A DNA stretch of 64,000 bases from Candidatus Methanomethylicaceae archaeon (GTDB lineage: Archaea; Thermoproteota; Methanomethylicia; Methanomethylicales; Methanomethylicaceae). How positions within the stretch are numbered: position 1 is the stretch's first letter; every line of letters begins with the position of its first letter. Positions 19,852-57,609 of this stretch are shown here, piece by piece. The DNA lies in the NCBI GenBank assembly GCA_026414165.1, contig JAOAJN010000003.1, forward strand, positions 579 through 64,578, in the 5' to 3' direction. The position numbers and the translations under genes were made by a program. The notes under the pieces are model-generated. The model was given only the letters and a program-made list of their open reading frames with translations. It did no database searches and was not told where the DNA came from.

Positions 19852-19852
19852 T

Positions 19853-26516: not shown

Positions 26517-26518
26517 AC

Positions 26519-27295
26519 ATGGATATGAAAGAGGTAGCAGAAAAGATCTACAAATACATTAAACCAAAGTCCAAGGTTGTAGGTATAAGATTCTTCAAGA
26601 GCAGAACAGAAGCGGAGGGAATGCTTAAGGCATTAAGGAGACCGAGAAAAAGACTCACCATATGTCAGATTATAAATACAGCAAGGCTTTATGGATGGAC
26701 TTGGGCGGTATTCTCAGAGGACGTTGATTGTGTTCTTGGATCTTCGGTTCTTGGACTGAGGGAGGTTGATGAGAGCTTTAAAAGTGGAGAGATCTTCATA
26801 AAGCTTGGATATGTAACGGACAGGGATGCGGCAAAGAATTTTGCAGACTCTGTTCCAAAAATGAGGGATAGAGTTGAGGGGTTTGTTGTTGGTCCCTTGG
26901 AGGGGCTTGAAGTGCAACCCGATCTGGTAATCATATATGGTAACGGGGCTCAGATGATGAGAGTTATAAACGGGGCAGTCTATGCGACTGGAGAGAGGCT
27001 CAAATTCGGCGCGATAGGCGATATAGGCATCTGTGGCGATGGTATTGCTGAGGCTTATAACACACAAAAGCCGCAGTTAGTAGTTGCTTGCTATGGAGAG
27101 AGGAGGTTCGGACATACATCGGACGATGAAATAGCCATGGTCATACCATTCAAATATTTAGAAAAATTTGTTGAGGGACTTGAGAAGACACACAACGCAG
27201 GCATAAGATACCCTATTCCGATAGCCGCAACCATTGCCGAACTTGACATTCCTGAGGTTTTAAGAGTCCAGCCTAAGGAGAAAGGGCAGCCCTAA
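26519..27295 (+). CDS. DUF169 (COG2043) family protein
   Basis: CQ..AR..G, C..G..LG, PDLVIIYG...Q.MR, C.G.R. Confidence 0.8.
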   Translation: MDMKEVAEKIYKYIKPKSKVVGIRFFKSRTEAEGMLKALRRPRKRLTICQIINTARLYGWTWAVFSEDVDCVLGSSVLGLREVDESFKSGEIFIKLGYVTDRDAAKNFADSVPKMRDRVEGFVVGPLEGLEVQPDLVIIYGNGAQMMRVINGAVYATGERLKFGAIGDIGICGDGIAEAYNTQKPQLVVACYGERRFGHTSDDEIAMVIPFKYLEKFVEGLEKTHNAGIRYPIPIAATIAELDIPEVLRVQPKEKGQP

Positions 27296-28265
27296 CCATA
27301 GCCTTGATGTTCCTCGTAGGGGTTCGCGGGGCGATACCACAGCTCGGCGCCAATATGTCCACCCCGGAATCTATTGCCTGCTTTGAGGCTTTGAAGACCT
27401 CCTCCTCAGTGCCCATCAGAAGCACTCCTGCGGAGGGAACATTTCCAACTATTGCGACTCTTCTGTCTTTTAGTATAGATTTTGCGGTGTTCAAGTCAAC
27501 TTTCTCCTCTATGCTGAGAGCAGAGAAGCCACAGTCGGCCATATGACTCAAGATTGGGGTCGCATTCCCACAGATGTGGAGGATTGACGTCTTTGCCACG
27601 TTTGCAATGCTCTTCAGGGGGCTTTTGGAGAACTTTTCGAACATCCTAGGACTCAAAACCGAGGGCGATGCGGTAGGATCGGCAGGAGCAATAATATCGG
27701 CGCCCTCTTGTATCAGAGCTTTCGTATAAATAACACAAGCATCCTCTGCGGCCTCTATGTATTTCGCGACCTCGTCTGGTTTTTTGATCATCATCAAGCA
27801 GAGGCGCTCAACGCCAAGAAGGTGACCAGCCAATGTGGTAGGTCCTTCGAATCCCACGATTAATGGTACGTCAAACTTCATTTCCTTAATTTTGTGGATA
27901 GCATCAAATATTGTCTGGATCCTGGTACTTTCTAATAGCTTTTCAGTGTTTGGGGTTTTGCCTTGATCGTAAAGGGTTTTTGCAACTGCTGGTTGACGAT
28001 CGTTCCTACCCCGGTCTATGATGCAGCCCATCGACTCGGCCAAGACTGTTAGGCAGAACGGAATCCGGACACCCTCCAAGCCCGCCACGGTGTGTGCAGC
28101 CGAGGCCAATTTTGCCATCAGATCCGCATCAAAGCTCGCATCCGGCCAGTAAGCCCCAGAAGCCTCCATAAGTTCGCAAGTTCCAGTCTGGGTAGCTGAA
28201 AGAACAGACGGACGGTCGACGCGTTCATAATTTAAAATCTTGAGCGTCCTTTCTTTTGGGGTCAT
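27273..28265 (-). CDS. mtaA: MtaA/CmuA-family methylcobamide:CoM methyltransferase (UroD fold)
   Basis: ATQTGT, PFCLTVLAESMGC, GPTTLA, DPTAS, LHICG and PSCG zinc ligands; ATG at 28265 after GGTGAGGA. Confidence 0.88.
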   Translation of the reverse strand: MTPKERTLKILNYERVDRPSVLSATQTGTCELMEASGAYWPDASFDADLMAKLASAAHTVAGLEGVRIPFCLTVLAESMGCIIDRGRNDRQPAVAKTLYDQGKTPNTEKLLESTRIQTIFDAIHKIKEMKFDVPLIVGFEGPTTLAGHLLGVERLCLMMIKKPDEVAKYIEAAEDACVIYTKALIQEGADIIAPADPTASPSVLSPRMFEKFSKSPLKSIANVAKTSILHICGNATPILSHMADCGFSALSIEEKVDLNTAKSILKDRRVAIVGNVPSAGVLLMGTEEEVFKASKQAIDSGVDILAPSCGIAPRTPTRNIKAMVRAALSP

Positions 28266-28300
28266 ATTCCTCACCAAGGGAAAAAAGAAAAAGAAGTATT

Positions 28301-29977
28301 TTAGAATTCCTCGAACTTGAGGAACTTCTCCTTCTCCTCGGGCGTGTAGCCACGTCTCCACCTGCGCCTCGCCCACTCAAAGACGTATATTAAGGTCACC
28401 ACAGCAGCGATGAGCGAAACAGTTCCAGGAACGACGGCTCCCGCACTATAATTCCACCATGCGCCGTAGATGGATGCGGGAAGGGATATGCCGAGAAGTG
28501 TGACCAACATCGCGATCCTCCAGAATATAGGATTCTTGTCATGAAGTCTGCACCACTCTCCGACAATTATAAAGGAGAAGACCGCTAAGGATGTGGAGAG
28601 AATCGGAAATAGAGCCCATATCTGCAGGTAGGCGCCGCTCAGCGCAAGACCTATGACGAGACAGGCAGTAATTGTGGCAGCGATCCACCTTGAAGCAGAG
28701 ACATATCTTGTTATCTTCTTCTTTGTCACTAGTTGGACGAATTCTATACCTAGGACGCGCATGTTTCTGAAGCCCGAATAGAAAGTACTCATTATAAAGA
28801 CCATCACAACCCACATACCAAATACTTTCAGTAGTGTGGGATCCGCGAAAGGCATTATAGAACCTACGATCTTCGCGAAGCCGAGCCCAAAGGCAGCAGT
28901 CCATCCAGCCTTTAATGCAGGTATATATGTACTGACTGGTAGGACTAGCATCGCCAAGAATGCGGTCCAAAGACCAACGCTTTCGAGAACCTCTCCGCCG
29001 TATCCGATAATTCTAACCCACCTTTCCTCTGGGAAACGCTTACACGTGTAAGCACCTATCCAGAAAACATGCATACCAGTAAGAGCCCCGCATGACACCA
29101 TCATAGTTATTCCTGGATAGAACCACCCGCTGGGAGTCAATGCCTTGTCATAGAATAGGAGGGCAGGATAATCGGTTATGGGGAAGTTTCCCACCAGGGC
29201 GCCTAGAAACAGCAAAACAACTCCAGTAGCCATGTATAAGAACATCATGAAATTTGATGGTTCCGAGTAGAGCCAGTTTGGTAGACATGCCGCCAATATT
29301 CCAACTATCGCAAGAAACACGTACCATGCTTCAGCAGACATCTTAAACGGATAAAGTAGACCCACATAAATCGCGACAAGAAATATAATGTACTGGATGA
29401 TGCCGACCAGCCAAATCGGCCAACCCTTCCTATAAAGAAGGTAGCCGAAGGGAGGACCTATAACCGCAAGTAAAAGAACGGGGACAAATAGAGCAGGCGT
29501 AGAAGTGGTCCCAGCCACAACCAGTCTGACAAAAGCAGCACAGAAACTGACTATGGCAATATATCCAATAAATGTGAATAAAATTCCCGAGAGAGGTGTT
29601 ATCCACCTGTATGAGACCTCGCTGGCGGTCTGTCCACGCTCACGCATCATCACGAAACCTGTGGCGTAGTCGTGGACTGACCCCAAGAATATGTTAACCG
29701 GCAATACGTACAAAATGCCCGATGCCCAACCCCACTGGGCGATGGCCACACCCCCAGACAGCGGTGCGCCTCCCGCTGTTGCCGCCCAATGATCACCAAA
29801 TAGAGATATTGGATTTGCGGGGTAGAAGTCGAAGTCATCTCTAAAGGCGCATGCAGGAGTCTTTCTACTAGGATCTGGAGTGAAGTATGCCTTCTCAAGT
29901 CTCTTAGAAACAACGAAGACGCCAAAGAGATAGAACGCGATTGCTATTATCACTAGGTAGGCAGTAGTCATTTCCAT
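28301..29977 (-). CDS. Divergent CstA-family transporter
   Basis: TPA....D..D..P....LFG.H...AG..P, WGW, GSVHD, CGALTG.H, IGYGG..LES match CstA motifs. Confidence 0.75.
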   Translation of the reverse strand: MEMTTAYLVIIAIAFYLFGVFVVSKRLEKAYFTPDPSRKTPACAFRDDFDFYPANPISLFGDHWAATAGGAPLSGGVAIAQWGWASGILYVLPVNIFLGSVHDYATGFVMMRERGQTASEVSYRWITPLSGILFTFIGYIAIVSFCAAFVRLVVAGTTSTPALFVPVLLLAVIGPPFGYLLYRKGWPIWLVGIIQYIIFLVAIYVGLLYPFKMSAEAWYVFLAIVGILAACLPNWLYSEPSNFMMFLYMATGVVLLFLGALVGNFPITDYPALLFYDKALTPSGWFYPGITMMVSCGALTGMHVFWIGAYTCKRFPEERWVRIIGYGGEVLESVGLWTAFLAMLVLPVSTYIPALKAGWTAAFGLGFAKIVGSIMPFADPTLLKVFGMWVVMVFIMSTFYSGFRNMRVLGIEFVQLVTKKKITRYVSASRWIAATITACLVIGLALSGAYLQIWALFPILSTSLAVFSFIIVGEWCRLHDKNPIFWRIAMLVTLLGISLPASIYGAWWNYSAGAVVPGTVSLIAAVVTLIYVFEWARRRWRRGYTPEEKEKFLKFEEF

Positions 29978-30130
29978 AGGATTTTCACCTTTTTGCTCCA
30001 GTATTAAAAATATTTATGTTACTCTATATAATATTTTTGAAAAATTTTATATTTTGAGTGCCAATATAAATGTAATATATAATTGTGATATAAAATTTTA
30101 GTTTGTTCTAAGTAAAACGCTTAATAAAAA

Positions 30131-30769
30131 TCATGAAATTAAAAACCTTAAAATTATTATTAAAAACCAGAATAGTAAAACACCTATGGAGATCACTTCC
30201 ATATATTTTTCCAACTTCAGATGCCTGAATATTGCCTCAAAGACCTTACCACCGTCCATAAGGGGTGCTGGGATCGCGTTAATAGTCAAAAGCCAAAAGT
30301 TGGCAACGGACATTATGTGCAAATGGGGGCTCAAAGTTAGGAATGGGAGAAACAGCAAAAATAGCAATAAGTTGGATCCCAAACCGCTCGAATAAAATGG
30401 TAGCTGGATTTTAGAATAAGTTTCGGGGGTTATGTCAGCCTTAACGAATCCGCCCCAGATGCCAGATATAGAGATCCCCGTCGAGATGTTCTTGACCTCC
30501 CTGTTTGCGAGAACAACTATGTGAGAAAACTCGTGTATGAAAAGACCTAATATTAAAGCGATGATTAAAAATATGAATGTGAAGGAGTCTATGAGAAAAG
30601 GTAAGAAAAATTTTGGAATAGATCCACAGGCAAAGAATAGGGTTATACATGCGAGAACAAATGGAACAGATAAAAACCCAAGGCTGCAAACAACAACCTC
30701 ATAGGTTTTGAAGGCTTTTTTGTTCGATTTGCAGGTTTTCACTATTGCCTCTGTGATCAGAAGCCTCAC
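30131..30769 (-). CDS. Site-2 protease (M50) intramembrane metalloprotease
   Basis: IHEFSH in a TM segment and NAIPAPLMDGG. Confidence 0.88.
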   Translation of the reverse strand: MRLLITEAIVKTCKSNKKAFKTYEVVVCSLGFLSVPFVLACITLFFACGSIPKFFLPFLIDSFTFIFLIIALILGLFIHEFSHIVVLANREVKNISTGISISGIWGGFVKADITPETYSKIQLPFYSSGLGSNLLLFLLFLPFLTLSPHLHIMSVANFWLLTINAIPAPLMDGGKVFEAIFRHLKLEKYMEVISIGVLLFWFLIIILRFLIS

Positions 30770-30776
30770 TTTCCAA

Positions 30777-31103
30777 TCATGTTTGTTTCTTGTACTCTTT
30801 GTAAGCGTCCAGCCCAGCCTTAGTCAATGTGAGTTTTGATGTTATTAGTCCTTTCTTCTCTTTCAGATACCCCATCGCTACGAGATCCTTGACTGCTAAT
30901 CTGAACATATCAGCCCAACCTTTCGTGCCAGCGGCGGTGCCCTTTATTCCGCTGTCCTTCCTCTTCGTCATTTCACTAGAAACATATCCAAGCACATCGC
31001 CGCTACCAATTTCAACCGATTCTATTTTGCTCTCGTCCCCAACTTTTTTTAGTATTCCTTCGATTATCAGTTCTTGCATAACTGTAAATTTTTTCTTTTC
31101 CAT
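30777..31103 (-). CDS. Hypothetical basic protein, probable winged-helix
   Basis: C-terminal AVKDLVAMGYL...LTLTKAG pattern typical of wHTH. Confidence 0.55.
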   Translation of the reverse strand: MEKKKFTVMQELIIEGILKKVGDESKIESVEIGSGDVLGYVSSEMTKRKDSGIKGTAAGTKGWADMFRLAVKDLVAMGYLKEKKGLITSKLTLTKAGLDAYKEYKKQT

Positions 31104-31155
31104 TATGAAAACCCGAATAACTATATATTTGCAGAGAATATAAAAAAATTTTTAG

Positions 31156-32220
31156 TTGGGGAGGATCGTTATAGATTATTTTTCATTATTCAAGATTACC
31201 ATAGCCATGTCCTTTCCATCAGCAATAGTCGTTCACTATCTAATACCGTTGATTGTGTGGTTCAAGAATCAAGATTTGCTTATAGTGGCCCTAGCACTCA
31301 CCTCGTATTACGCAGGGTTTACGCTTGGGACGCATTATGGTCTTTGGTCGAGGGCGACTCTGTCAAGAATGGCCGGGACTTTCATGACTGCGCATGTAAT
31401 AACTACGCTGCTCCTTGGAGCCTATGGCTACGGCTATATGGCCCCAATTTTTTCAATGCTGGTAGGCGCAACCACAGGAGGGCTCCTTTCACTCCCATCT
31501 TCAAAAGTAATGAGTATCCCAACAGCATCTCTTCTCTCGGCATTTCCCCTTTTTGGGAGTATTTTAATGGAATTTTATGGAGCGGATTCAGTTTTAGTTG
31601 CATCAGGAATGCTGGCTTTTTTGTCTTCAGTTTTATTGCTGATCTCGATGAAAATAATCGTTCCAAAGCCAAAAATGGTGGAGGATGGGAAGTTAGGACT
31701 TTCCTTGGATGGATGGTTAATTGCACTTGGAATCGGCCTTGGGGGCACCATGGGAACGGTTTTGATGCCAGTTATAGCGGTTGTTGCTTTGGAAGTTGAG
31801 GTTATTTATGTGGGGCTGATAATCACAATATCGCTTGTAACAATTCAAGTAATTGCCTTGAGGTTGCGCAAGCAGAACGTGATCTACAAAAGCATCGGAA
31901 CTATCACGGCGTTGTCAATATTTTTTGTTTTTCTGATTATGGGGCTCCAAGACAATATTTTTATCTTCCTAGTCCTGTGGTTCTTGGCAATTGTAGACCT
32001 AAGTTACTGCAACTCCTTTTTGGTGGTCGCCAACAGAACCCTTAAGAAGTTTGACGAGAAAATTTTCATGTTAGTTTCAAATATTCTGTGTATGTTTGGG
32101 CCCTTACTCGCCGTTTTAATTTGGGCAATGGGGTCTTACCAATTAATTTTTTACTTTAGTGCCTTCTTAATACTAATTGGATGGATTGCAATGCGGAGGT
32201 TTCTGAAAGAGGTAAAATAG
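31156..32220 (+). CDS. Multi-TM membrane protein, distant MFS-like
   Basis: ~11-12 hydrophobic segments, GPLLA..IW near C-terminus; no clear motif A. Confidence 0.6.
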   Translation: MGRIVIDYFSLFKITIAMSFPSAIVVHYLIPLIVWFKNQDLLIVALALTSYYAGFTLGTHYGLWSRATLSRMAGTFMTAHVITTLLLGAYGYGYMAPIFSMLVGATTGGLLSLPSSKVMSIPTASLLSAFPLFGSILMEFYGADSVLVASGMLAFLSSVLLLISMKIIVPKPKMVEDGKLGLSLDGWLIALGIGLGGTMGTVLMPVIAVVALEVEVIYVGLIITISLVTIQVIALRLRKQNVIYKSIGTITALSIFFVFLIMGLQDNIFIFLVLWFLAIVDLSYCNSFLVVANRTLKKFDEKIFMLVSNILCMFGPLLAVLIWAMGSYQLIFYFSAFLILIGWIAMRRFLKEVK

Positions 32221-33144
32221 ATGGGGTTGATGGATGAGGTTTTGGACCCAAAGTCCTCTACAATACTCAGGATCGCATTGGGAAAAATAACACAAAGGAT
32301 TCCGCTGACTCTTTGCACGGTGTTAAGTGTGGCACTGGTAACCTACGCATTCATATTTGTAGAGGTGGCTGTTGAGGGGTTATCGCTTGCATCTATATTG
32401 TTGCTAACATTTTTTTTGGCAATAACGATGTCGTTTGCTCTGGAATACGACAGTAAAGACGAACTCATGGTTCTAATAAATCTGGGAGTTTCACCATCAG
32501 ACATTTTCAAACTCGGAATATTCAGGGTGTTGATCATTTCTTTCATGGGATACCTGATCGGTGTTTTAGTCTCCTTAATATGGCCACTCTCAGGAATAAA
32601 GAACGTTATGTTGTTTTATTCGTTTTTGATAGCGACTGCTTTAGGGATCATCCCCCCGATCTATTCCTCATTGAGATCTATGCGCGTAAGTCTTCTTGGA
32701 AGAGCTGCATTTAAGCCTTTGACAGAGAATGAGGTGCCAGTAGCATTATCGCCATCGGAATTGGTGGAGGTTAGAGAGTTCATTAAAGAGAGGTTAAAAG
32801 ACCGACAAGACATAACGATTGTAGACTGCTCAGTAGGTAATGGAACACTCAACCTAGTTTGTAGGTACCTTGGAGACTTTGGGAGGGAGACTTTTGCCCT
32901 ACTCGCAACCGTAGGCGTAAATCCAGACGAAGCTCTCAGAAACGATGATACTCTACCAGCAGTTAGGTTAAGGGTGAGAATAGAAGAGGGCAAAAATCCG
33001 GTCATTGAGTGTTGGGAAGGCAGGGATGAAAAACATAAGAAAAGGTCGGCTATTTCTTTGAGCTTCCAGAGCCTTGTCCGACAGCTATTAATAGAGTATA
33101 AGGTTTACAGGGGCAAGCTCAGAGGTATAGAGTATCGCACATGA
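32221..33144 (+). CDS. Membrane protein with FtsX-like permease segment and soluble C-terminal domain
   Basis: ELMVLINLGVSPSDIFKL resembles the FtsX/MacB permease motif; 4 TM. Confidence 0.55.
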   Translation: MGLMDEVLDPKSSTILRIALGKITQRIPLTLCTVLSVALVTYAFIFVEVAVEGLSLASILLLTFFLAITMSFALEYDSKDELMVLINLGVSPSDIFKLGIFRVLIISFMGYLIGVLVSLIWPLSGIKNVMLFYSFLIATALGIIPPIYSSLRSMRVSLLGRAAFKPLTENEVPVALSPSELVEVREFIKERLKDRQDITIVDCSVGNGTLNLVCRYLGDFGRETFALLATVGVNPDEALRNDDTLPAVRLRVRIEEGKNPVIECWEGRDEKHKKRSAISLSFQSLVRQLLIEYKVYRGKLRGIEYRT

Positions 33145-33159
33145 TCGATAAGATCAAAG

Positions 33160-33180
33160 ATTAGTAATTAGTAATTAGTA
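33160..33180. repeat. 3 x 7-bp tandem repeat (attagta)
   Basis: attagta attagta attagta between convergent genes. Confidence 0.7.
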
Positions 33181-33254
33181 AAAAATGGAAAATTTATGAG
33201 TGCTCCTTTTGCTTTTAGTAGATTTATCAATGAAATACAAATTCTGCAGTAGTG

Positions 33255-33995: not shown

Positions 33996-34144
33996 GCATG
34001 TCGCACCCCATAACTAATCTATTTGAAGAAGATTTATGCGTTTGTGAAGTTGGTTTTGATTTTCGTTTTTACCTTTTTGTGGCGAACGTTTGGTTTTGGT
34101 TTTATTTTTTATTTTTATTATTTTATATATTTAAACAAGTTCAA

Positions 34145-34822: not shown

Positions 34823-34843
34823 AAGCCGTCCTCCAAAAAAAGT

Positions 34844-35488: not shown

Positions 35489-35499
35489 ATATCCACCCC

Positions 35500-36546
35500 C
35501 TACTGGTAAACACCATACTTTTTGACGGCTTCTACCATGGCTAAAATATTCTCCTGAGGCACTGCCGCAGGGACTATGCATCCAGAGGCCAACACAAACC
35601 CACCACCAGTCATTGCCTTCTCCAAAGCTATTTTACATTCCGCCTCAACATCTCCTGGCGTCTTTTGTAGCAGCGTGACTCCTGGGCTGATGTTTCCCAT
35701 TATGCAGACTCTATTTCCAATAAGCGATTTTGCCCTTGCAAGGTCTACCTTTTCATCCACACTTATGGCATCTGCACCAGTATTTGCCATAACCTCTAGT
35801 CTGTCGTTAACGTTTCCGCAAATATGTAGAAAGACCTTCGTGCCCATCCTCTTTATTGCTCGTATCTCCCTTCTCAAGTAGGGAAATACGAACTCTTCGA
35901 ATGCCTTCTTTGAAATCATGTCCCCAGAAGATGTCGGATCCGAGACCCATATGAGGTCTGCTCCAGCTTCAACAACAGCCTCTCCATAAACTATAAGGCT
36001 CTCTGTGGCGATCTCTATTAGTTCTTTTAGTTGGTCAGGGTTCTTTTTCATATCCAGCAATGCCCTCTCTGTACCACGCATCATACAAGTGTGCCTCCAA
36101 CATGCCTGAACATAGCCCATCACGGGTATGACCCCACCAACAGCCTCCTTCATTCTAGAGATGCCCTTCAGTATCATCGGTAAGCGACCATCCTTTCTCG
36201 GATGCGGGATCTTTAGCCTAGGCAGATCCTTAGAGTAGTCATTCACCGCAGGTACATCTACGGAGGGAGGTGCATCAATAGGTATCTTGAGCACACTTCC
36301 CATAGCCTCAGACTCTGCATGTACAGCCAGAAGATCCAACACCATGTCGTAGCCAAACTTTCGTACCGCGTAAAGTTGTGAATAAACATACTTCTCCGTA
36401 TTTGTCATGACTTCAGAGAACTTATACCCAGCTTGACGGACGCACCATTCCCTCACGAATGGGGTTACAGGAACGCGATCTGGTTTTTTGAGCTCAAAAG
36501 CAGCCATAAGACGGTCGTAAGGAGTCATTTCCTCTCTTTGAGACAT
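35500..36546 (-). CDS. MtaA/CmuA-family (UroD fold) methyltransferase, second paralogue
   Basis: PDRVPV, ESEAMG, DPTSS, LHICG, GNI.P, SGC. Confidence 0.88.
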   Translation of the reverse strand: MSQREEMTPYDRLMAAFELKKPDRVPVTPFVREWCVRQAGYKFSEVMTNTEKYVYSQLYAVRKFGYDMVLDLLAVHAESEAMGSVLKIPIDAPPSVDVPAVNDYSKDLPRLKIPHPRKDGRLPMILKGISRMKEAVGGVIPVMGYVQACWRHTCMMRGTERALLDMKKNPDQLKELIEIATESLIVYGEAVVEAGADLIWVSDPTSSGDMISKKAFEEFVFPYLRREIRAIKRMGTKVFLHICGNVNDRLEVMANTGADAISVDEKVDLARAKSLIGNRVCIMGNISPGVTLLQKTPGDVEAECKIALEKAMTGGGFVLASGCIVPAAVPQENILAMVEAVKKYGVYQ

Positions 36547-36663
36547 CTTGCTTCCCGTATTTTATTTTAGCATAATTTATTTTTAAGGCTTGTTAGATAT
36601 TCTTATATAAAAATCAAATAAGCAAATTATATCAATAAATTATCCATTTTATTTTTATTGCGT

Positions 36664-36939
36664 TCATCCACCATCTACCATTGGTAGGATGCTTATCTCC
36701 TCTCCGCCCATAAGTACTTCTGACGAGATTGGTATAGGAGCCCGACCGTTGACTAACACTATGACAGCTGCCTTTTCTGTTTGCAGATTTTCCAATAATG
36801 GCTTAAGCTTCTCGAAGCGTCCGACAAGTTTTTTTAAAAAAAGAGGAAGCGGTGTGGGCCCTTCAATTTCGAGTTCCGCCAAGGATGTCCCCGCTGCATC
36901 TCTGATGTCTTGGTAGAACTTTACACTCACCTTTCCCAT
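36664..36939 (-). CDS. MoaD/ThiS ubiquitin-like protein
   Basis: beta-grasp pattern VLVNG, C-terminal PMVDGG; directly after AOR. Confidence 0.88.
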   Translation of the reverse strand: MGKVSVKFYQDIRDAAGTSLAELEIEGPTPLPLFLKKLVGRFEKLKPLLENLQTEKAAVIVLVNGRAPIPISSEVLMGGEEISILPMVDGG

Positions 36940-36949
36940 AGCAAACCCC

Positions 36950-38815
36950 TTAGCGCAATCTTCCCATCTTTTCTAAGTCATCAGCAATATCCTTTAGACC
37001 CAACTCTTCAAGCTTACCCCTTGTGGGCAGACCTGTTGCAACATCCCATCCTCTGGCTTGGTAGTATTCATCAAGCAGAGGCTCTAGTTCGAATTTCTGC
37101 CCTTTTGATGGTCCGTCGGGTATTGGCTCCTTGAGGAAGCGGGCAGGCAGAGTGTCGTGCCTTCTGTCAAAGCCTTCCCTGACGTTAAAGGCTTTCTCGA
37201 CGTTCCAGACCCTTTCTCCTATCTTGAGAGCTGATTCGAACCCTCCGAAATCTACTCCTGTAGCAGCCACAACTATTTTCGTTAATAGGTCGGGCTTATG
37301 CCATTCGGATCTAGTCGGGAATGTGCACCATATGCAGCACTCGCCCCATGTGAGACGGTCTTGGTTGAACTTTGTGAGTTTGCCCTTGCCCTCAAGAGTA
37401 TAACGATCCACCGGAGTGGGAAGTCCAAAGACTTCCTGAGTGCCGTAGCCCAGGGCATGGCTACCACCTATGTTTGAGGTAACCATACCTAAACCATGCG
37501 CCTTTACGGGACGAGGATCGTAAGCTGGTAGCTCGAGACCCTTTATGTGAGGGGCAAACTCCTCTGATCCCTTTCCAATCTTCTCTGAGGCGACCTTTAC
37601 GCCCTCTGCCAAGAGATCTCCGAACCCTTCCCTGAATGCTATCTTCTTTATGAGCTTCATCATTACTTCCTCATCACGCCACCTGAGCACCATTCCGTCA
37701 GTGTCTTTAGTAGTTATTATGCCCCTCTCAAAGGCCTCTATCGCAAATCCTATGGTGATCCCTGCGGAGATTGTGTCTATGCCATATAGATCAGCAAGTT
37801 GGTTCGCCGCTATTGTTGCATCCAAGTTTGAGATATCCAGCAAACCACCAAAGGTACAGAATGTCTCATATTCCGGTCCATCGACCCATGCCCCTGCATA
37901 AGGGCCCTCTTTAACGTAGGTGAACTTCCAGCAGTTTATGATGCAGTTCGGGCACCCTGCATTTCTTATGGTTTTCCTTACCCGTCCTTCACCATTTAAT
38001 TTCTCATGATCGGGGAAATAGGTGCTCCTGAAGTTCTTGTATGGATAGTCGCCTATTTGGTTTATGAGCGTATGTATAGCAGCAGTGCCATATCTTTGCA
38101 TCCTCTTGGTGCCGTGGGCTGCGGAGAGTTGGTTGATCTGCTCCTTGACAAGCTCTTTAAGGACATCCTCATTCGCTATTGGTATAGGCTTGTCTCCATA
38201 GACTGCTACGGCCTTCAGGTTCTTCGCGCCCATTATAGCACCCATTCCGCCTCTGCCAAGCTGTCTTGTGCCACATTGAACGATTGCATACTTTACAAGT
38301 CGCTCCCCTGCAGGACCTATGACTGCAGTCTCTACTCGTGGATTTCGTATCAAGTGGTTTTTGATGATGTATTCAGCCAAGTCGGTGGTTGTGCCCCATA
38401 AGGAAGAAGCATCCCCGAATTCCACATCTCCATTTTCAATGTAAATATAAGTGGGACTTTCAGCCTTGCCCTCAATTATAAGAAAATCGTATCCAGAGCG
38501 TTTCAGCATAATCCCAAGGTTGCTGACGCAACGTGATCGAAAATATGTGCCTGTAGCAGGAGATTTTGTTGTGACGACCCATCCGCTGGAGCAAGCTTGA
38601 ACAGGAAGACCCGTGAGGGGTCCAGTGCCCCAAACCATCTTGTTATCTGGTGACAAGGGATCTGTACCAGGAGTCATGATATCATAAAGAAGTCTTGCAG
38701 CGATGCCGCGTCCTCCAAGGTATTTCCTTATGTAATCTTCTGGCAGTGGGGACTCTGAGACTTTTTTTTCTGTGAGGTTCACTCTTAAGATTTTACCCAT
38801 GTATGCACCTTGCAT
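36950..38815 (-). CDS. aor: Tungsten-containing aldehyde:ferredoxin oxidoreductase family
   Basis: GKILRVNL, LGGRG, KSPATG, IGPAGE, GRGGMGA.MG.KNLKA, CxxCxxxC, GPEYET, DTIS.G, EYY..RGWD. Confidence 0.93.
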   Translation of the reverse strand: MQGAYMGKILRVNLTEKKVSESPLPEDYIRKYLGGRGIAARLLYDIMTPGTDPLSPDNKMVWGTGPLTGLPVQACSSGWVVTTKSPATGTYFRSRCVSNLGIMLKRSGYDFLIIEGKAESPTYIYIENGDVEFGDASSLWGTTTDLAEYIIKNHLIRNPRVETAVIGPAGERLVKYAIVQCGTRQLGRGGMGAIMGAKNLKAVAVYGDKPIPIANEDVLKELVKEQINQLSAAHGTKRMQRYGTAAIHTLINQIGDYPYKNFRSTYFPDHEKLNGEGRVRKTIRNAGCPNCIINCWKFTYVKEGPYAGAWVDGPEYETFCTFGGLLDISNLDATIAANQLADLYGIDTISAGITIGFAIEAFERGIITTKDTDGMVLRWRDEEVMMKLIKKIAFREGFGDLLAEGVKVASEKIGKGSEEFAPHIKGLELPAYDPRPVKAHGLGMVTSNIGGSHALGYGTQEVFGLPTPVDRYTLEGKGKLTKFNQDRLTWGECCIWCTFPTRSEWHKPDLLTKIVVAATGVDFGGFESALKIGERVWNVEKAFNVREGFDRRHDTLPARFLKEPIPDGPSKGQKFELEPLLDEYYQARGWDVATGLPTRGKLEELGLKDIADDLEKMGRLR

Positions 38816-38924
38816 TGTCTATCCCAATAGTTATAGGCTTTGACATTATTTAAGTTTTATTTTTACTAAAAATGCTTGAAATTTAAAAGATATTTTTATA
38901 AATGTATTATTTGTATTTACAGTT

Positions 38925-40145
38925 ATGGTCTGGTCTGCATTCGGCGCATTGTTTGACCCTGACGAGGGCAGAGATTCAATTCAAAGAAAGATAGAAGAGG
39001 TAATTAAAGGTATAAGACCAGCAAATCCATACAGGGCGGTGCTTTGCTCTGAAGAGGTTGTAGGGTTGAATATCAGAGATTGCGGGGAGGTTCCGATAGA
39101 GAGCTGGCTTTCTATATATCCAGTTCAGGATGACCTTTTCATGCTCACGAGTGCCAATTTCGGGATCTTCCTAGATTCTGATGGGTGCAGAGAGTATAAG
39201 GAGAAAGTGAGGGAGTATGCAAGAGGATTGGAAAGACCACTAATGATAGGGGGCGATCATAGTCTTACGGGCGGGGTCGTTGAAGCTTTAATTGATAAGT
39301 ACGAAGATTTGCTACTAGTTGTACTTGATTCCCATTTTGACGGTATACCCTCGCCGATAAGGAACGAATTGATCGGATATATGATGGAGAGCAGACCAGA
39401 TTATGAAAGGTTCGGATACAAGCCTTCTGATTATGTATTCAGTTCTGCGGGTAGGAAAAATAGCTACAATGGGGGATCATTCCTCTACCACTTAATTAAC
39501 GAAGGCATAATAAATGCTGAAAATGTTGTAGTCTTCGGCCCTTTGGACTATCCGACCGAGAAAATGGAGAGGATCCAGGATCATCGAGTGAAAGAATTTG
39601 TTCAGACATATAAAGCTCTAGAGAATGAGGGTGTCAAGATCGTTCATAGGGGAATAATAGATTCTCTTGGTCTCGAGAAGGTCATCAATGATTGCGTGGG
39701 TCCAAAATTTGCAGCCAGTAACATTTACATATCAGTTGATTTAGACATCGGCTCAAGATCGGCGCTAATGGGAGCTAAATTCACAGACATAGAGGGCCTT
39801 AAGGAGGCAAGCATTTACATGTTATTAAGAGCGCTATACAAAAACGCGAGTAACATAATAGGTTTAGATCTCATGGAGATAGATCCTTGGAGGGCAGGTC
39901 TCATCAGAGACGGTGTAAAGGATAGAACTTACAACATCTGTGGCAACATAATAAGAATACTAACTGATGGCAACATATATCTACAAAAAAGGTACAAGGA
40001 AGTTTTAGAAAAAATTTCTCCCAAGACTATGCTCAAAGAAATTGGTGATAAAAAATTGCTTGATGAGCTTATCAATATGGGATTCCTTGAATTATCTGGA
40101 AAATATTTGAATGTGCTTTATGATGGTGAAGTCTTATCCTCATAA
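38925..40145 (+). CDS. Divergent arginase/ureohydrolase-family protein
   Basis: GGDHS, DSHFD, SVDLD, DLMEID metal ligands; insertions and C-terminal extension. Confidence 0.8.
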   Translation: MVWSAFGALFDPDEGRDSIQRKIEEVIKGIRPANPYRAVLCSEEVVGLNIRDCGEVPIESWLSIYPVQDDLFMLTSANFGIFLDSDGCREYKEKVREYARGLERPLMIGGDHSLTGGVVEALIDKYEDLLLVVLDSHFDGIPSPIRNELIGYMMESRPDYERFGYKPSDYVFSSAGRKNSYNGGSFLYHLINEGIINAENVVVFGPLDYPTEKMERIQDHRVKEFVQTYKALENEGVKIVHRGIIDSLGLEKVINDCVGPKFAASNIYISVDLDIGSRSALMGAKFTDIEGLKEASIYMLLRALYKNASNIIGLDLMEIDPWRAGLIRDGVKDRTYNICGNIIRILTDGNIYLQKRYKEVLEKISPKTMLKEIGDKKLLDELINMGFLELSGKYLNVLYDGEVLSS

Positions 40146-40213
40146 TAAAAAGGGTCTGGATATTTGAAAGTTATTTGAAAAACTGAGTTGGTGAAAAAGA
40201 AAAAAAAGAGGAA

Positions 40214-40369
40214 TTATGCGTAAGAGACTACAAAGTCCTTAAAGACCTGCGAAGGTAGGAGCTTAGTGTTGTGAGATCCACAATTAGGACATTTTATCGA
40301 GGATGATATTTTGTTAGAGACCCAAGTGTGTCTGCAATCTCTACACTTTATTTTGTATTCAAAAGGCAT
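40214..40369 (-). CDS. Small zinc-ribbon protein (51 aa)
   Basis: Not in ORF track; AGGTGG RBS, MPFEYKIKCRDCRHTWVSNKISSSIKCPNCGSHNTKLLPSQVFKDFVVSYA. Confidence 0.8.
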   Translation of the reverse strand: MPFEYKIKCRDCRHTWVSNKISSSIKCPNCGSHNTKLLPSQVFKDFVVSYA

Positions 40370-40379
40370 GCAATCCACC

Positions 40380-41708
40380 TCATTTCATAGATCTTTCAAG
40401 TAGTTGCAGGATGTCTCCGATCTCAAGACCGAATTTTCCAGATTCTTCGTTGCGTCTAAGATTTAGCACACAGAAAGGACAAGCGCTGGATACATATGAT
40501 GCGCCCACCAGTTTCGCTTCCTTGAGTCTTTCCGTGGCTGCAAAATTGGCAAGCTCAGGGTAGGCAGACATTACGCCCGCACCCGCACCACAACACCATG
40601 CATGGTGCGCAGTCCTCTCAAATTCTACAAACTTTAACTCCGGTATGTTAGAGAGGATATCTCTGGGCTCATCGAACACTCCGACATGGCGACCCAAGTG
40701 GCACGGATCGTGGTATGTTACCACTTTATCGGTAGCTCTGCTCTTTGGTTTAAGCCTGCCGCTACTCAAGTACTCGCTGAATAGTTGTGAAGAGTGCAAT
40801 ACCTCAAATGAGGGCTTAGAACCACCGAACTTTCTGTATCCTTCGTGAAACTGTCGGAAGCAGCCAGCGCAAGAAGTTATCAGTCGCGTTATTCCGAGGT
40901 CTTCTATTTTGGCGATGTTGTGTTCATATGTCTCCTTAGCCTCTTCCCATAGACCAGTCATGTATAAAGGAGAACCGCAGCACCACTCGTCCCCCCCGAG
41001 TATTGTAAAGTCAGCGTTGGCTGCCGAAAGAAGAGAGACTGTGGCCTCACAAACATCCGGAGTTCTGTATGGACCCGTGCATCCTGCGAAGTACAAAATC
41101 TCTGCACCCTTCTTCTGGGGGGCCACGCTCTTCTTCAACCAAGCAAATCTTTTCTCTGGCGGTTCAGCGTAGGGGTTGTGGTACTCTTTTATATAGTTTG
41201 CAAACTTCTTGTGTGCGGCAGGGGGCGCTATGCCCATCTTAACGAAGGTCCTTCTGAGAGCCATTACGGATACTACTGGGTCGCTCCCAATTCCCATACT
41301 GCACTGCAAAGTGCAGTTTCCGCAAAGGTTGCAGAAGTATGCAACATCCACGAGTTCTGGCGTCGGCTTTATGAAGCCCTGCAAAAGACCCAAAACAGTC
41401 ATATGCTTCCCTTGTCCTCTGTACGCCGCCTGCCTGTAGTGTGCAGGGTATGTGGCAGTTGGGCAGTTCATAGCCCAATTCGCCATTGAGGACATTTCAC
41501 ACTGCCCACAGACCCAGCATCGGACAGCCTCAAATTTGGCTGCTGCGAGATCCGGGTACTCGTTATCCTTGGGGAAGGCTATATTCACCCATTCACGAGG
41601 CGTTTTATCCAGACTGGCGTGTGTTATGAACGGTACAAATTCTATGTTTTTATATATTAAGGGTATTTTTCTCTCTACCTCAGTCACTTGAACCACCCAC
41701 CTACCCAT
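40380..41708 (-). CDS. HdrD/GlpC-like Fe-S oxidoreductase with two CCG domains
   Basis: Two 4Fe-4S motifs; FAGC/CCGSP/SCAGC and HDPCHLGR/CCGAG/ACPFC. Confidence 0.88.
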   Translation of the reverse strand: MGRWVVQVTEVERKIPLIYKNIEFVPFITHASLDKTPREWVNIAFPKDNEYPDLAAAKFEAVRCWVCGQCEMSSMANWAMNCPTATYPAHYRQAAYRGQGKHMTVLGLLQGFIKPTPELVDVAYFCNLCGNCTLQCSMGIGSDPVVSVMALRRTFVKMGIAPPAAHKKFANYIKEYHNPYAEPPEKRFAWLKKSVAPQKKGAEILYFAGCTGPYRTPDVCEATVSLLSAANADFTILGGDEWCCGSPLYMTGLWEEAKETYEHNIAKIEDLGITRLITSCAGCFRQFHEGYRKFGGSKPSFEVLHSSQLFSEYLSSGRLKPKSRATDKVVTYHDPCHLGRHVGVFDEPRDILSNIPELKFVEFERTAHHAWCCGAGAGVMSAYPELANFAATERLKEAKLVGASYVSSACPFCVLNLRRNEESGKFGLEIGDILQLLERSMK

Positions 41709-43266
41709 ACTCGAAGGGTATGTTGAACCCTAGCCATGGAGCCATAATATTGTTTGGATCAACGGCACGTTTGATCCTCTGATATAGTTCAAAGAAGCCA
41801 GGGTCCATGTGCTGCGAAACCACTTTTGCACCAAGACCGAAGCACCTTGCAGGAACGAATCCGCCCTCACGTATGACCCTTGGGATGACCTCCCCGAAGA
41901 ATGCGGCATATTTCTTAACACCCTCGCCGTCGCCACGCTCGATTGGGACCATGTACCTCACATGGGAAACCCTTCCCTCGTTTATAGGTATCACATGTAG
42001 TGCTGGAACAAGTCCGTGCTTTCTGCCAACGCTCCAAGTTATATCATGAAGTTTGGGAAGGGCGCTGTTTCCCACGCTTCCGTAGAAGCTCCATATATGC
42101 CCTGGGACCCAACCGCAGTACCTTATGCGCTGGTTACCAGGTTCGCCTTCGCCTATGCCACCGTACATTTTTATTGATGCTTCTATCTCCCCGAACTTTA
42201 TGCCCGGGCAGTTATCAGGAGTCAACTCAGTAACCTCAGGGTGCGATGAGAGGTAGGCAGACCAGTATTTCTCCCAGAGCTTAGCCTCGTCCTCTGACTG
42301 GTAGTGTGGGGTGCAAGCGAGCATGTAGAAATACTGCGTACCTTCGCCTGGGAAGCCATAGTATTCCCGCATTTTGACTATATCATCATCAGTCAAGTCG
42401 TAGAGCTTCTTTTTCTGGTCGAAGCCCCAATACGGCGCTATATTAGTCCCGTGAAGTACAAATAGTAACCAGTGACCTCCTGAGGTATTAGGTGCCAATT
42501 TTGTATACATAACCTTTGAAAGATTCTTTGCTAGCTCATCACACTTTTTAATTCCCAGAAACTTGACGGTCAGTGCTTTTGGTTTTGGCCATAGTTTTAT
42601 CGCTGCCTTTGTGACTACCCCAAGGGTACCAAGCGCTCCGACAAAGATCCTAGTCAGTTGTGGACCAAAGCCCAGATCAAATGTGTATTTACATGAAGAT
42701 ATGGGTAAACTCCAAGACCCAGTATGTGCAATCTCTCCAGTGGGCAGGACTGCCTCCAGTGCCATTATTGCTTCTTGATTTCCATCACTTACCGAAGTCA
42801 TATTCATGCCTATGCCCTTAAACAGGAAGTTGGCAACTATGGAGGTGTTCGGAGGGGCAGTAGTGGTCGGAATTACTAGATCGATATTCTTCGAACGCAA
42901 ATATCTGTAGAACTGATTGAAGGTTACACCTGCATCTATAACGGCATATCCTTCCTCAACATTAACCTCATGGATTCTGTTCATTCTAACTGTTTGGAGC
43001 AGTATGCCGCTGTAACAGGGGAGTTTGTAGGAGTACGCACTAGCCACATGCACAGGTACCTTATATCGGTTTGCCATAAGGATAATGTCTTGAACCTCGA
43101 ATTCATTTGCAGGTCTTACGATGTAGTCGGGCATCTTTGGCGGTTTGCCCGGAAATATTTGGAGCCAAGCATCATATACCTCTGCGAAGATTCTGCCTGG
43201 ATCAGATATCACGTTTGCAGGACCAACGATAGCCTCTAACTCCTTAAGAACCAATTCGTTTGGCAT
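41701..43266 (-). CDS. FAD-binding oxidoreductase, GlcD/Dld-like
   Basis: PDYIVRP, RMNRI..V, AGVT, EAVLPTGE, GTLGVVTK, IKRAVDPNNIM. Confidence 0.85.
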   Translation of the reverse strand: MPNELVLKELEAIVGPANVISDPGRIFAEVYDAWLQIFPGKPPKMPDYIVRPANEFEVQDIILMANRYKVPVHVASAYSYKLPCYSGILLQTVRMNRIHEVNVEEGYAVIDAGVTFNQFYRYLRSKNIDLVIPTTTAPPNTSIVANFLFKGIGMNMTSVSDGNQEAIMALEAVLPTGEIAHTGSWSLPISSCKYTFDLGFGPQLTRIFVGALGTLGVVTKAAIKLWPKPKALTVKFLGIKKCDELAKNLSKVMYTKLAPNTSGGHWLLFVLHGTNIAPYWGFDQKKKLYDLTDDDIVKMREYYGFPGEGTQYFYMLACTPHYQSEDEAKLWEKYWSAYLSSHPEVTELTPDNCPGIKFGEIEASIKMYGGIGEGEPGNQRIRYCGWVPGHIWSFYGSVGNSALPKLHDITWSVGRKHGLVPALHVIPINEGRVSHVRYMVPIERGDGEGVKKYAAFFGEVIPRVIREGGFVPARCFGLGAKVVSQHMDPGFFELYQRIKRAVDPNNIMAPWLGFNIPFEYG

Positions 43267-57530: not shown

Positions 57531-57609
57531 AACGATCACCAATTTCTACAAAGCAATTTTTGAAAAAGAGATGGGCTTTGAGACGCCTATTAGAATAAAG
57601 TGGAAGACC

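Follow-up and report, generated by a model that had tools for sequence, protein, structure and literature searches.

The window analyzed here, a stretch of 64,000 nucleotides (G000:C33:579-64578), comes from a Methanomethylicaceae assembly of 1.19 Mb in 42 contigs that is 85.7% complete and encodes McrA. Between positions 27273 and 43317 it carries a methyl-transfer island built around UroD2, a divergent UroD-fold methyltransferase, together with a corrinoid protein, an MtaA paralog, an aldehyde:ferredoxin oxidoreductase (AOR), and a flavin adenine dinucleotide (FAD) protein paired with an HdrD-like protein. This gene arrangement is beyond chance, as judged by synteny and co-occurrence. On balance, and with moderate confidence, we favor the view that the locus is the methyl-activation part of an accessory, substrate-specific methylotrophy system, in which UroD2 would serve as the substrate-specific methyltransferase (MT1) and MtaA as the methyl-corrinoid:coenzyme M (CoM) methyltransferase (MT2), with the corrinoid protein between them. 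We favor it because the UroD2 and corrinoid genes are adjacent, because the three genes co-occur, and because UroD2 is constant while the second methyltransferase is specific to the host. What is new is a variant of the corrinoid methyltransferase theme, a UroD2 clade linked to an AOR and a flavoprotein pair; in the literature searched, we found no account that separates the UroD2 clade or links UroD2 to these redox genes.

The Methanomethylicia are among the first cultured methanogens outside the Euryarchaeota. Methylotrophic systems normally combine a substrate-specific MT1 (MtaB, MtmB, MtbB, or MttB) with a RamA-type activase; some MtaA-fold enzymes (MtsA, CmuA) act directly on the substrate. 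A preliminary description of the island had listed its genes, had noted that neither a classical MT1 nor RamA lies within it, and had proposed that a larger methylated organic compound is imported, processed by the hydrolase, and demethylated by a UroD-fold enzyme, with oxidation of the remaining carbon serving to reduce heterodisulfide. Overall, this interpretation was partly supported. Every gene that it named was present at 27273-43317, and no open reading frame (ORF) of that interval encoded RamA or gave a Pfam match to the classical MT1 families (MtaB, MtmB, MtbB, MttB). In what follows, G000 is the window's own genome, G018, G028, G030, and G041 are other genomes compared with it, C denotes a contig, and L denotes a retrieved locus. 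The genes on which the argument turns are as follows.

27273-28376, minus strand: MtaA paralog, methyl-corrinoid:CoM methyltransferase (MT2); PF01208, 249.9 bits; NF040654, 401.1 bits against a cut-off of 400
34844-35581, minus strand: corrinoid (B12-binding) protein; PF02310, 105.1 bits; PF02607, 81.2 bits
35500-36546, minus strand: UroD2, divergent UroD-fold zinc-motif methyltransferase, 348 aa; PF01208, 266.7 bits
36664-36939, minus strand: MoaD/ThiS-family small protein; PF02597, 23 bits; TIGR01687, 45.9 bits against a cut-off of 49.5
36950-38815, minus strand: tungsten-type AOR; PF01314, 431.2 bits; PF02730, 228 bits
40380-41708, minus strand: HdrD-like Fe-S protein bearing a pair of CCG domains (CCG motifs at 243 and 372 in the protein); PF02754, 120.8 bits
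41701-43317, minus strand: FAD_binding_4 protein of the vanillyl-alcohol oxidase (VAO)/p-cresol methylhydroxylase (PCMH) superfamily; PF01565, 64.9 bits

The true starts are likely Met38 for MtaA (28265), Met32 for the corrinoid protein (35488), and Met18 for the FAD protein (43266). The apparent overlap of the UroD2 and corrinoid ORFs vanishes if the corrinoid gene begins at Met32; an 8-bp overlap joins the FAD gene to the HdrD-like gene.

UroD2 and MtaA belong to different clades

UroD2 scored under every MT2-type cut-off (TIGR01463, 214.9 against 235.4; PRK06252, 210.4 against 244; MtaA, 183.5 against 400; MtbA, 161.8 against 600). The island MtaA cleared the cut-offs of PRK06252 (380.4 against 244) and TIGR01463 (307.4 against 235.4) in addition to that of NF040654, and by these scores the ORF at 27273-28376 is a canonical MtaA, though barely over the equivalog cut-off. 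The two proteins were also set apart in a quick IQ-TREE phylogeny of 61 UroD-fold rows, which was midpoint rooted, carried support values only from the Shimodaira-Hasegawa-like approximate likelihood ratio test (SH-aLRT), and was anchored by NCBIfam equivalog scores and matches to solved structures. An MtaA-type clade of 12 rows (SH-aLRT, 99) held the island MtaA orthologs, the MtaB-linked MtaA of a closed relative, and a paralog encoded on contig C38 of G000. Inside it, the island MtaA clade (8 rows; SH-aLRT, 100) joined the MtaB-linked MtaA of G030 with a support of 92; the latter protein scored 419.8 on NF040654, and the island MtaA shares about 38% identity with the relative's MtaB-linked MtaA. 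The UroD2 family (38 rows; SH-aLRT, 99) was placed apart from this clade, as sister (84) to a three-row group designated UroD-X, and its archaeal rows (Methanolliviera, Hadesarchaea, and Methanomethylicia; 15 rows; 99) were nested among bacterial ones. A third group of 8 rows, with a support of only 81, included the second UroD-fold genes of bacterial triads. Of the two UroD-fold paralogs noted in the preliminary description, scores and tree identify one as a canonical MtaA; the other, UroD2, is below the MT2 cut-offs and in a separate clade. The proposal of a UroD-fold substrate demethylase can be narrowed to UroD2, the best candidate for a substrate-specific methyltransferase.

Among solved structures, the best match of UroD2 was MtaA of M. 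mazei (4ay7; 141.7 bits), with 65.2 bits for CdmB and 77.2 for true UroD; the C38 paralog gave 219.7 bits with 4ay7, 39.5 with true UroD, and no match to CdmB at an E value of ≤0.001. The match to CdmB (9rui; 429 aa) was confined to UroD2 residues 156-347, and UroD2 had neither full-length similarity to the MtoB/MtvB/CdmB-type enzymes of about 400 to 430 aa nor their N-terminal extensions. The residues of its HxC...C zinc motif (H241, C243, and C323) align with those of 4ay7 and are invariant in an alignment of 18 family members; true UroD is not known to have a zinc site of this type. As a means of telling MT1 from MT2 enzymes the motif was rejected, being common to every clade. An Asp-Arg pair following HxC was present in the UroD2 and UroD-X clades and not in the MtaA-type rows.

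The corrinoid protein has the features of a methyltransferase cognate, namely, B12-binding and B12-binding_2 domains with DxHxxG, here at residues 133-138; its TIGR02370 score of 212 was just under the cut-off of 215.3.

Conservation of the island in Methanomethylicia

Relatives of UroD2 were collected by a pattern-based search, and the best 80 of 116 were kept as loci. No Methanosarcina was found among these best 80 of 116, and the loci 83 to 94% identical to UroD2 came from bins named Methanomethylicaceae, Methanomethylicia, and Methanosuratincola. The preliminary description had regarded the island as a conserved unit, and comparison of neighborhoods bore this out. Sixteen Methanomethylicia loci were compared, 12 of which have flanking sequence downstream of UroD2, and in all 12 the corrinoid gene lay directly 3' of UroD2; in the remaining four, the contig stops within about 110 bp after UroD2 or inside it. 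The order IlvE-FAD-HdrD-ureohydrolase-AOR-MoaD-UroD2-corrinoid-ABC was found in L034, L035, L039 (partly rearranged), L041, and L042, and AOR-MoaD-UroD2 was also found in L033 and L040. A reduced locus, L044, reads IlvE-UroD2-corrinoid-MtaA-SAHH, the last being S-adenosylhomocysteine hydrolase (SAHH); in L026, IlvE likewise stands directly upstream of UroD2, and the contig stops about 100 bp past UroD2. Wherever a locus reached far enough (L034, L036, L038, L041, and L044), MtaA was found downstream (5/5). The position of the QueG-like gene varied between loci.

In the Methanosuratincola-type loci L036 to L038, the AOR side is replaced by a very divergent UroD-fold gene (L036:6027-7112) with its own corrinoid protein. 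This gene gave 71.7 bits on PRK06252 and 41.4 bits with MtaA 4ay7, and in the tree it grouped with the second UroD genes of bacterial triads (support, 81; long branches).

Co-occurrence was counted in 32 Methanomethylicaceae genomes, with 30 further genomes of the class as a sample outside the family. Orthologs were accepted at identities of at least 83% for UroD2 (plus one 95% fragment), at least 61% for the island MtaA, and at least 73% for the corrinoid protein. UroD2 orthologs were present in 18 of the 32 family genomes and in none of the 30 genomes outside the family. The island MtaA was found in 17/18 UroD2-bearing genomes and in 2/14 of the others; stops in several MtaA matches fall in the upstream extension of the query, before Met38. 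The corresponding figures for the corrinoid protein were 15/18 and 1/14, and in the three genomes that missed it UroD2 lies at a contig end. Orthologs of the window FAD protein and of the window AOR were each found in 11/18 and 0/14 genomes. The distribution of MtaB was the reverse (2/18 with UroD2, 9/14 without); overall, it was encoded in 11/32 genomes and gave no match in 21/32, and 5/32 had neither MtaB nor UroD2. None of the five genomes of the window's genus gave an MtaB match, and two closed 1.5-Mb genomes of another genus had no UroD2 and did have MtaB and an MtmB-like pair. Therefore, the UroD2 system looks accessory.

Other methyl-transfer genes of the genome

Profile searches of G000 gave no match to MtaB, MttB, or MtbB, an absence that this 85.7% complete assembly does not prove by itself. 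RamA is encoded on the window's contig (C33:77014-78939), about 12 kb past the window end, among McrC, an A2-like ATPase, and methanogenesis marker genes. On contig C22 (G000:C22:8921-12369; L017:6921-10369), the gene for a corrinoid protein precedes two MtmB homologs in tandem, which gave 366 and 345 bits on PF05369; they have no in-frame stop, and comparison with solved MtmB places Ile at the pyrrolysine position of the first copy. Such an MtmB-like pair was found in 28/32 family genomes, whereas TAG-containing MtmB (about 530 to 600 bits) was found in only 3. Hence, the reported lack of a classical MT1 and of RamA applies to the island and not to the genome, which has RamA on the same contig and MtmB-like MT1 candidates on C22. 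The preliminary description had also named three findings that would speak against it, loss of synteny, grouping of both paralogs with canonical MT2 enzymes, and MT1 partners elsewhere in the genome; synteny was kept, one of the two paralogs is a canonical MT2, and MtmB-like partners do exist elsewhere.

Just three URO-D matches were found in G000, and no long enzyme of the MtoB/CdmB type is among them. The third is a UroD-fold gene on contig C38 (G000:C38:74056-75800; L016:8056-9800) that scored 327.8 against 244 on PRK06252; a corrinoid protein of its own accompanies it, as do divergent Fe-S proteins. Nearly every genome of the family gave matches of comparable identity at corresponding hit positions, and this gene is probably the mtsA of earlier annotations. 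On contig C37, an MtrH-family gene, a MetE-like gene of the methionine synthase type, and a B12-binding match lie together (G000:C37:51620-53714; L019); clusters of this kind are cited for "unknown methylated substrates" in passages of an earlier report (10.1101/2022.08.18.504445). In excerpts of other reports, mtoABC homologs are noted in one Verstraetearchaeota bin (PMC8359953), and UroD-superfamily MT1 clades with unknown substrates are said to exist (PMC13222342). A Methanomethylicia isolate grew on methanol and monomethylamine with H2 and did not use methanethiol (PMC12244365). This failure to use methanethiol cannot be carried over to UroD2, which is missing from both closed genomes of the isolate's genus-level group.

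These genes bear on the possibility that UroD2 is an MtsA-like bifunctional enzyme, which together with the adjacent corrinoid protein would act on methyl sulfides unaided, or a further MT2 isoenzyme serving MT1 enzymes of other loci, for example, the MtmB-like pair, so that no new MT1 would be involved. The zinc motif of UroD2 is the same as that of MtaA, which is also its best solved relative, and the pairing of a UroD-fold gene with a corrinoid gene resembles the mtsA/mtsB layout, as described in passages of a study in which MT2 enzymes are also presented as promiscuous (10.1101/548461). Moreover, metagenome-based accounts of the lineage give mtsA and mtaA as core genes, together with an hdrD-glcD pair (PMC6783470). 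Nevertheless, UroD2 fell under all MT2 cut-offs, and the C38 paralog is the better MtsA-like candidate; the UroD2 family is mostly bacterial; a dedicated MtaA co-occurs with UroD2, which would be needless for a bifunctional enzyme; and the MtmB-like pair is kept in genomes without UroD2 and so is independent of it. We regard this alternative as unlikely.

UroD2 homologs outside the class

Homologs 40 to 67% identical to UroD2 were found in Hadesarchaea, Methanolliviera, Desulfobacteraceae, Syntrophaceae, Spirochaetes, and Clostridia, and most of these hosts are not methanogens. In the short hadesarchaeal locus L045, the UroD2 homolog adjoins an MtaA-type::corrinoid fusion. The spirochaetal loci L055, L057, and L069 read DUF169-UroD2-corrinoid-UroD, and the clostridial locus L067 reads PrpD-PrpD-UroD2-corrinoid-UroD-EamA. 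UroD2 is thus constant while its partner varies by host, as expected of a substrate-specific MT1 working with a host-specific MT2. In Syntrophaceae (L047, L048, and L068), an FAD/CCG pair lies 4.5 to 6 kb from the UroD2 homolog in a GntR/TAXI/PrpD cluster; an AOR lies near the homolog in L055, L057, and L068; and in Desulfobacteraceae (L054) the homolog is flanked by a CCG protein on one side and DUF169 on the other. Transporters and regulators of the carboxylate type often stand nearby. Of the loci from outside Methanomethylicia, 14 span about 11 kb or more; an HdrD-like gene was found in 4 of these, an AOR in 3, and DUF169 in 4.

Many of the bacterial homologs lie beside TRAP/TAXI, GntR, MmgE/PrpD, AcnX, creatininase, and amidohydrolase genes and have no corrinoid gene within 8 kb (for example, L046, L047, L049, L051, L054, L058, L060, and L068). 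Such contexts would fit a UroD2 family engaged in organic-acid catabolism with FAD/CCG proteins, AOR, PrpD- or AcnX-type enzymes, and carboxylate transporters, in which UroD2 would be corrinoid free, for example, a zinc-dependent alkyl or thiol transferase or a decarboxylase, and the corrinoid protein and MtaA would belong to another system. The UroD fold does include true decarboxylases, UroD2 scored 95.1 bits on the hemE profile versus 57.3 and 49.1 for its G000 paralogs, and a UroD-X-containing cassette described below has no adjacent corrinoid gene in G018 and G028. This explanation nonetheless appears improbable, given that a corrinoid gene is adjacent in all 12 Methanomethylicia loci with flank and in six loci of other lineages (L045, L055, L057, L065, L067, and L069), that every member of the family alignment keeps the zinc-site His and both Cys residues, and that the UroD-X of G041 lies next to a corrinoid gene.

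Redox genes and the paralogous cassette

The preliminary description had tied the AOR and the FAD/HdrD-like pair to the methyltransferase. This link was upheld because a paralogous five-gene cassette exists, because co-occurrence with UroD2 is nested (11/18 versus 0/14), and because an FAD/CCG pair lies near the homolog in Syntrophaceae. The cassette, termed cassette C (AOR'-MoaD'-FAD'-HdrD'-UroD-X), was found in G018, G028, and G041; its proteins are 33 to 39% identical to those of the window and 61 to 87% identical among the three genomes. In G018 and G028, no corrinoid gene adjoins it. In G041, which belongs to the same genus as G000, the order is MoaD'-transposase fragment-FAD'-HdrD'-UroD-X-corrinoid (93%)-ABC-QueG-like-...-CstA-MtaA (90%)-DUF169-SAHH; the genes are codirectional, the first ones are 13 to 24 bp apart, and a gap of 15 bp separates UroD-X and the corrinoid gene. 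In this genome, the same constant corrinoid-to-MtaA block is joined to another methyltransferase and redox set, and the window-type AOR and FAD genes are on another contig. The DDE transposase fragment between MoaD' and FAD' at the cassette edge (L109:17727-18113; G041:C12) hints at a route of cassette exchange. In cassette C, a MoaD paralog lies beside the AOR paralog.

Could the island instead be a set of unrelated modules (a methyltransferase set, a transporter/protease set, an AOR, a ureohydrolase, and a general HdrD-GlcD reductase) that are coinherited by kinship? Its flanks do vary, in that the side from AOR to FAD is missing in L036 to L038 and in L044/L026 and the QueG-like gene moves, and a set on C22 (see below) has the FAD, HdrD-like, and ureohydrolase genes with no methyltransferase nearby. 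HdrD-GlcD pairs of the lineage, in one to three copies, are moreover described in parts of two reports as candidates for a general heterodisulfide reductase (10.1101/2022.08.18.504445; PMC6783470). Against such a juxtaposition stand the recurrence of the same five gene types at low identity, codirectional and closely spaced in G041, comparable links in Syntrophaceae and other bacteria, and the nested co-occurrence, and we consider it quite improbable.

The label "GlcD-like" for the FAD protein proved imprecise, since profile and fold are nearer to VAO and PCMH than to GlcD or D-lactate dehydrogenase (D-LDH). For all three paralogous "GlcD-like" proteins, the best matches were VAO, eugenol oxidase, and PCMH enzymes. 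The family profile gave 322.9 bits with VAO, 236.4 with D-LDH, and 220.3 with glycolate oxidase. A model of the FAD protein built from a 27-row alignment (pLDDT, 78.1; pTM, 0.81) was compared by Foldseek, and among the matches listed (41 rows of ranks 1 to 47) all were 4-phenol oxidases or dehydrogenases (TMq, 0.71 to 0.81), with vanillyl-alcohol dehydrogenase and PCMH at 0.78 to 0.80 and D-LDH behind at 0.65 to 0.66. The FAD protein is 538 aa long versus about 455 to 480 aa for GlcD/D-LDH, and it scored 70.4 on TIGR00387 against a cut-off of 567.9. A C-terminal EHGxG stretch, which we take to be a mark of the GlcD type, was seen in the alignment in the GlcD-type row P0139 and not in FAD-protein sets A to C. 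The Tyr/Tyr/Arg residues of VAO/PCMH enzymes, which presumably bind the phenolate (VAO Y108 and Y503 appear in the titles of solved mutants), are likewise not kept. The GxNxGYG tyrosine is missing, the first phenolate Tyr falling in a stretch that is absent here, and the PCMH-type Tyr-Arg pair is replaced by Ala-Arg in set A (that of the window protein) and by Tyr-Lys in sets B and C. Because these tyrosines are missing despite the likeness in fold, no phenolic substrate is proposed, and a methoxylated aromatic substrate was set aside. The best relatives outside Methanomethylicia are at most 37% identical. We therefore call the FAD protein, on the basis of the model and alignments, an uncharacterized branch of the VAO/PCMH superfamily that belongs to neither characterized subgroup.

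The best NCBIfam match of the HdrD-like protein was TfrB, a thiol:fumarate reductase subunit (178.6 bits against a cut-off of 385), which is consistent with electron exchange, in either direction, with the thiols or the disulfide of CoM and coenzyme B (CoB). The best solved relative of the AOR was 1aor (437.7 bits). In the ureohydrolase, the GGDHS, DSHFD, and SVDxD columns are invariant relative to the window's canonical family member, and all equivalog scores were below cut-off; the notion of a pseudoenzyme was rejected, as the metal motifs are retained. A second operon with VAO-like FAD, HdrD-like, and ureohydrolase genes lies on C22 (G000:C22:69416-73280; L116:6416-10280), 24 to 37% identical to the window set and with no methyltransferase nearby. 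Because of this second triplet, the ureohydrolase is associated with FAD/HdrD-like pairs and not with the methyltransferase.

Remaining genes of the island and the window

The island falls into four groups: MtaA, CstA, the small M50-like protein, and the 108-aa protein (minus strand); the MFS-fold and FtsX-like proteins of 354 and 307 aa (plus strand); QueG-like, ABC ATPase, corrinoid protein, UroD2, MoaD, and AOR (minus strand); and the ureohydrolase (plus strand) with the HdrD-like/FAD pair (minus strand). Gaps within the run from AOR through MoaD, UroD2, corrinoid, and ABC to QueG-like measure 10 to 149 bp. The genes that remain to be listed include those for a major facilitator superfamily (MFS) protein and an ATP-binding cassette (ABC) protein.

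28301-29977, minus strand: CstA-family transporter; PF02554, 199.3 bits
30131-30769, minus strand: small M50/S2P-like membrane protein with 4 hydrophobic segments; PF02163, 32.4 bits
30777-31103, minus strand: 108-aa soluble protein with a weak winged-helix match; PF24409, E value of 0.0053, below cut-off
31156-32220, plus strand: MFS-fold membrane transporter, 354 aa, about 9 hydrophobic segments, no Pfam match
32221-33144, plus strand: membrane protein, 307 aa, weakly FtsX-like, with a soluble C-terminal half; PF02687, E value of 0.0011, below cut-off
33255-33995, minus strand: QueG/reductive-dehalogenase-like Fe-S protein, 246 aa; TIGR02486, 77.3 bits, and TIGR00276, 67.2 bits, both below cut-off
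34145-34747, minus strand: ABC-type ATPase, LolD/FtsE/MacB-like; PF00005, 108.2 bits; TIGR02211, 168.8 bits, below cut-off
38925-40145, plus strand: divergent arginase-family ureohydrolase with an insert; PF00491, 84.3 bits

In L034, L036, L038, L041, and L109, CstA, present in one copy in G000, has the M50-like gene on one side and MtaA on the other, and the 108-aa protein has relatives that are 75 to 97% identical. In a structure atlas, the 354-aa protein matched MFS clusters (TM, 0.83; feature score, 0.98), and the neighbors of the QueG-like protein were "epoxyqueuosine reductase family" clusters at 0.95. In L041 and L042, the FtsX-like gene comes immediately after the ABC ATPase gene, with both on one strand, and its product is a probable partner of that ATPase. 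The ABC ATPase ORF begins just about 15 residues ahead of Walker A; relatives align over the same 196 to 199 of 200 residues, so that the short N terminus is conserved.

Several further genes were observed in or beyond the window. A DUF169 gene (26501-27295, plus strand) adjoins MtaA, and a second DUF169 gene of G000 (C11:201785-202552) is separated by about 2 kb from another AOR-family gene, itself next to a polyferredoxin. A QueG-like paralog of 27% identity (3273-4028, minus strand) adjoins a radical SAM gene (4130-5155, minus strand). Four clustered genes at 17840-21750 (minus strand) encode the large and small subunits of a NiFe hydrogenase, a 4Fe-4S subunit, and an Fe-S subunit that binds NAD/FAD, in a sulfhydrogenase-like layout. 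At 55418-59571 (minus strand), an AMP-binding enzyme of the acetyl-CoA synthetase type, DUF4212, and a sodium:solute symporter form what looks like a set for acetate uptake and activation.

Comparison with known systems and proposed pathway

The closest parallel in described role, as distinct from sequence, is MtpA of M. acetivorans. In passages of the study describing it, MtpA was first thought to be MtsA-like and proved to be a specific MT1 (methylmercaptopropionate [MMPA]:cob(I)alamin) with its own corrinoid protein, MtpC; it did not methylate CoM and required a second methyltransferase (10.1101/548461). We propose that UroD2, the corrinoid protein, and MtaA divide the work in the same way, with MtpA/MtpC as the biochemical precedent. 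The systems differ in that the partner MT2 of MtpA is unidentified, whereas here an MT2 lies in the same island and an AOR and a flavoprotein/HdrD-like pair are linked as well. The methylthiol:CoM methyltransferase of M. barkeri, MtsA/MtsB, as sketched in that study (10.1101/548461), likewise pairs an MT2-homologous enzyme acting directly on the methylated substrate with an adjacent corrinoid protein; unlike the present island, MtsA performs both half-reactions alone, and UroD2 lies below the MT2 cut-offs that the C38 paralog passes. The MtoABCD, MtvABC, Odm/Vdm O-demethylase, and CdmBCA chloromethane dehalogenase systems follow a three-component scheme in which an MT1 of the UroD superfamily works with a corrinoid protein and an MT2; an activase resembling RamA is also present, and MFS transporters are often close by (PMC13222342; PMC8359953). 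Their acceptor side is a tetrahydromethanopterin (H4MPT) or tetrahydrofolate (THF) methyltransferase in place of the CoM-directed MtaA, and CdmB, at 429 aa, is longer than UroD2 (348 aa) and a more distant match to it than is MtaA. The methanol:CoM system MtaABC shares with G000 an MT2 of the MtaA equivalog, here in the island, and RamA in the genome, and differs in MtaB, which was found neither in G000 nor in any of the five genomes of the genus. Finally, TfrAB, GlcDEF, and HdrD-GlcD share the succession of an FAD_binding_4 flavoprotein and an HdrD/TfrB-like two-CCG Fe-S protein; the window flavoprotein differs from GlcD in the EHGxG stretch and from VAO/PCMH in the GxNxGYG Tyr and in Ala-Arg for Tyr-Arg.

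In the pathway that we favor, UroD2 would move a methyl group from a methylated compound onto Co(I) of the corrinoid protein encoded downstream, the island MtaA would hand it to CoM, with reduction to methane next, and RamA, about 40 kb off on the same contig, would maintain the corrinoid in its reduced state. Candidate importers are the MFS-fold protein and CstA. The two redox sets, AOR plus MoaD and the VAO-like flavoprotein plus the HdrD-like protein, would most likely oxidize the substrate or the demethylated skeleton and pass electrons to ferredoxin and a disulfide, plausibly CoM-S-S-CoB. For the substrate, our best guess is a small carboxylate or aldehyde that carries an O- or S-methyl group. 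A carboxylated compound is suggested by the transporters and by the bacterial contexts, and a thiolate-type zinc site suits S- or O-methyl donors, although neither amounts to a test.

Several points weigh against this assignment. The equivalog score of the island MtaA is borderline (401.1 versus 400), the HxC...C zinc motif is identical across all UroD-fold clades examined, and the tree was built from rows among which there is no named MtsA, MtpA, MtoB, CmuA, or Methanosarcina MtaA/MtbA. The co-occurrence counts overstate independence, as the 32 genomes are all kin. Neither the AOR nor the FAD/HdrD-like pair is beside UroD2 in L036 to L038 or in L044/L026, and the flavoprotein, fitting neither GlcD/D-LDH nor the 4-phenol oxidases in their canonical forms, is uninformative about the substrate. 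In the metagenome bin G041, UroD2 is on a 1.5-kb contig ending just past the gene, and the apparent swap of cassettes could stem from a mixture of two strains or from duplication of the block. Outside Methanomethylicia, a corrinoid gene was near in just 5 of the 14 long loci (L055, L057, L065, L067, and L069), with the short locus L045 as a sixth case; therefore, the UroD2 family need not always be corrinoid dependent.

We tentatively raise one further idea, which we rate as rather doubtful, that the island supports H2-free methyl-reducing methanogenesis. A single organic compound would then give both the methyl group, through UroD2, the corrinoid protein, and MtaA, and the electrons, through the flavoprotein/HdrD-like pair and the AOR to CoM-S-S-CoB and ferredoxin; cassettes A (with UroD2) and C (with UroD-X) would be interchangeable front ends on a constant corrinoid/transporter/MtaA block. 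If true, this would explain the livelihood of Methanomethylicaceae genera that have no MtaB.

For the use of a methyl donor by members of the family without an MtaB match (21/32, including all five of the genus), the locus provides a concrete and testable candidate, made up of a small methyltransferase, a corrinoid protein, and an MtaA, each amenable to heterologous expression, and of a defined group of linked redox enzymes. If the flavoprotein/HdrD-like pair and the AOR act on the same substrate as UroD2, methyl transfer and electron supply would be combined in one cluster, and the range of methane-yielding compounds in hot springs, oil reservoirs, and digesters would be wider. Since the UroD2 family extends to sulfate reducers, syntrophs, and spirochaetes, its substrate may matter beyond the methanogens.

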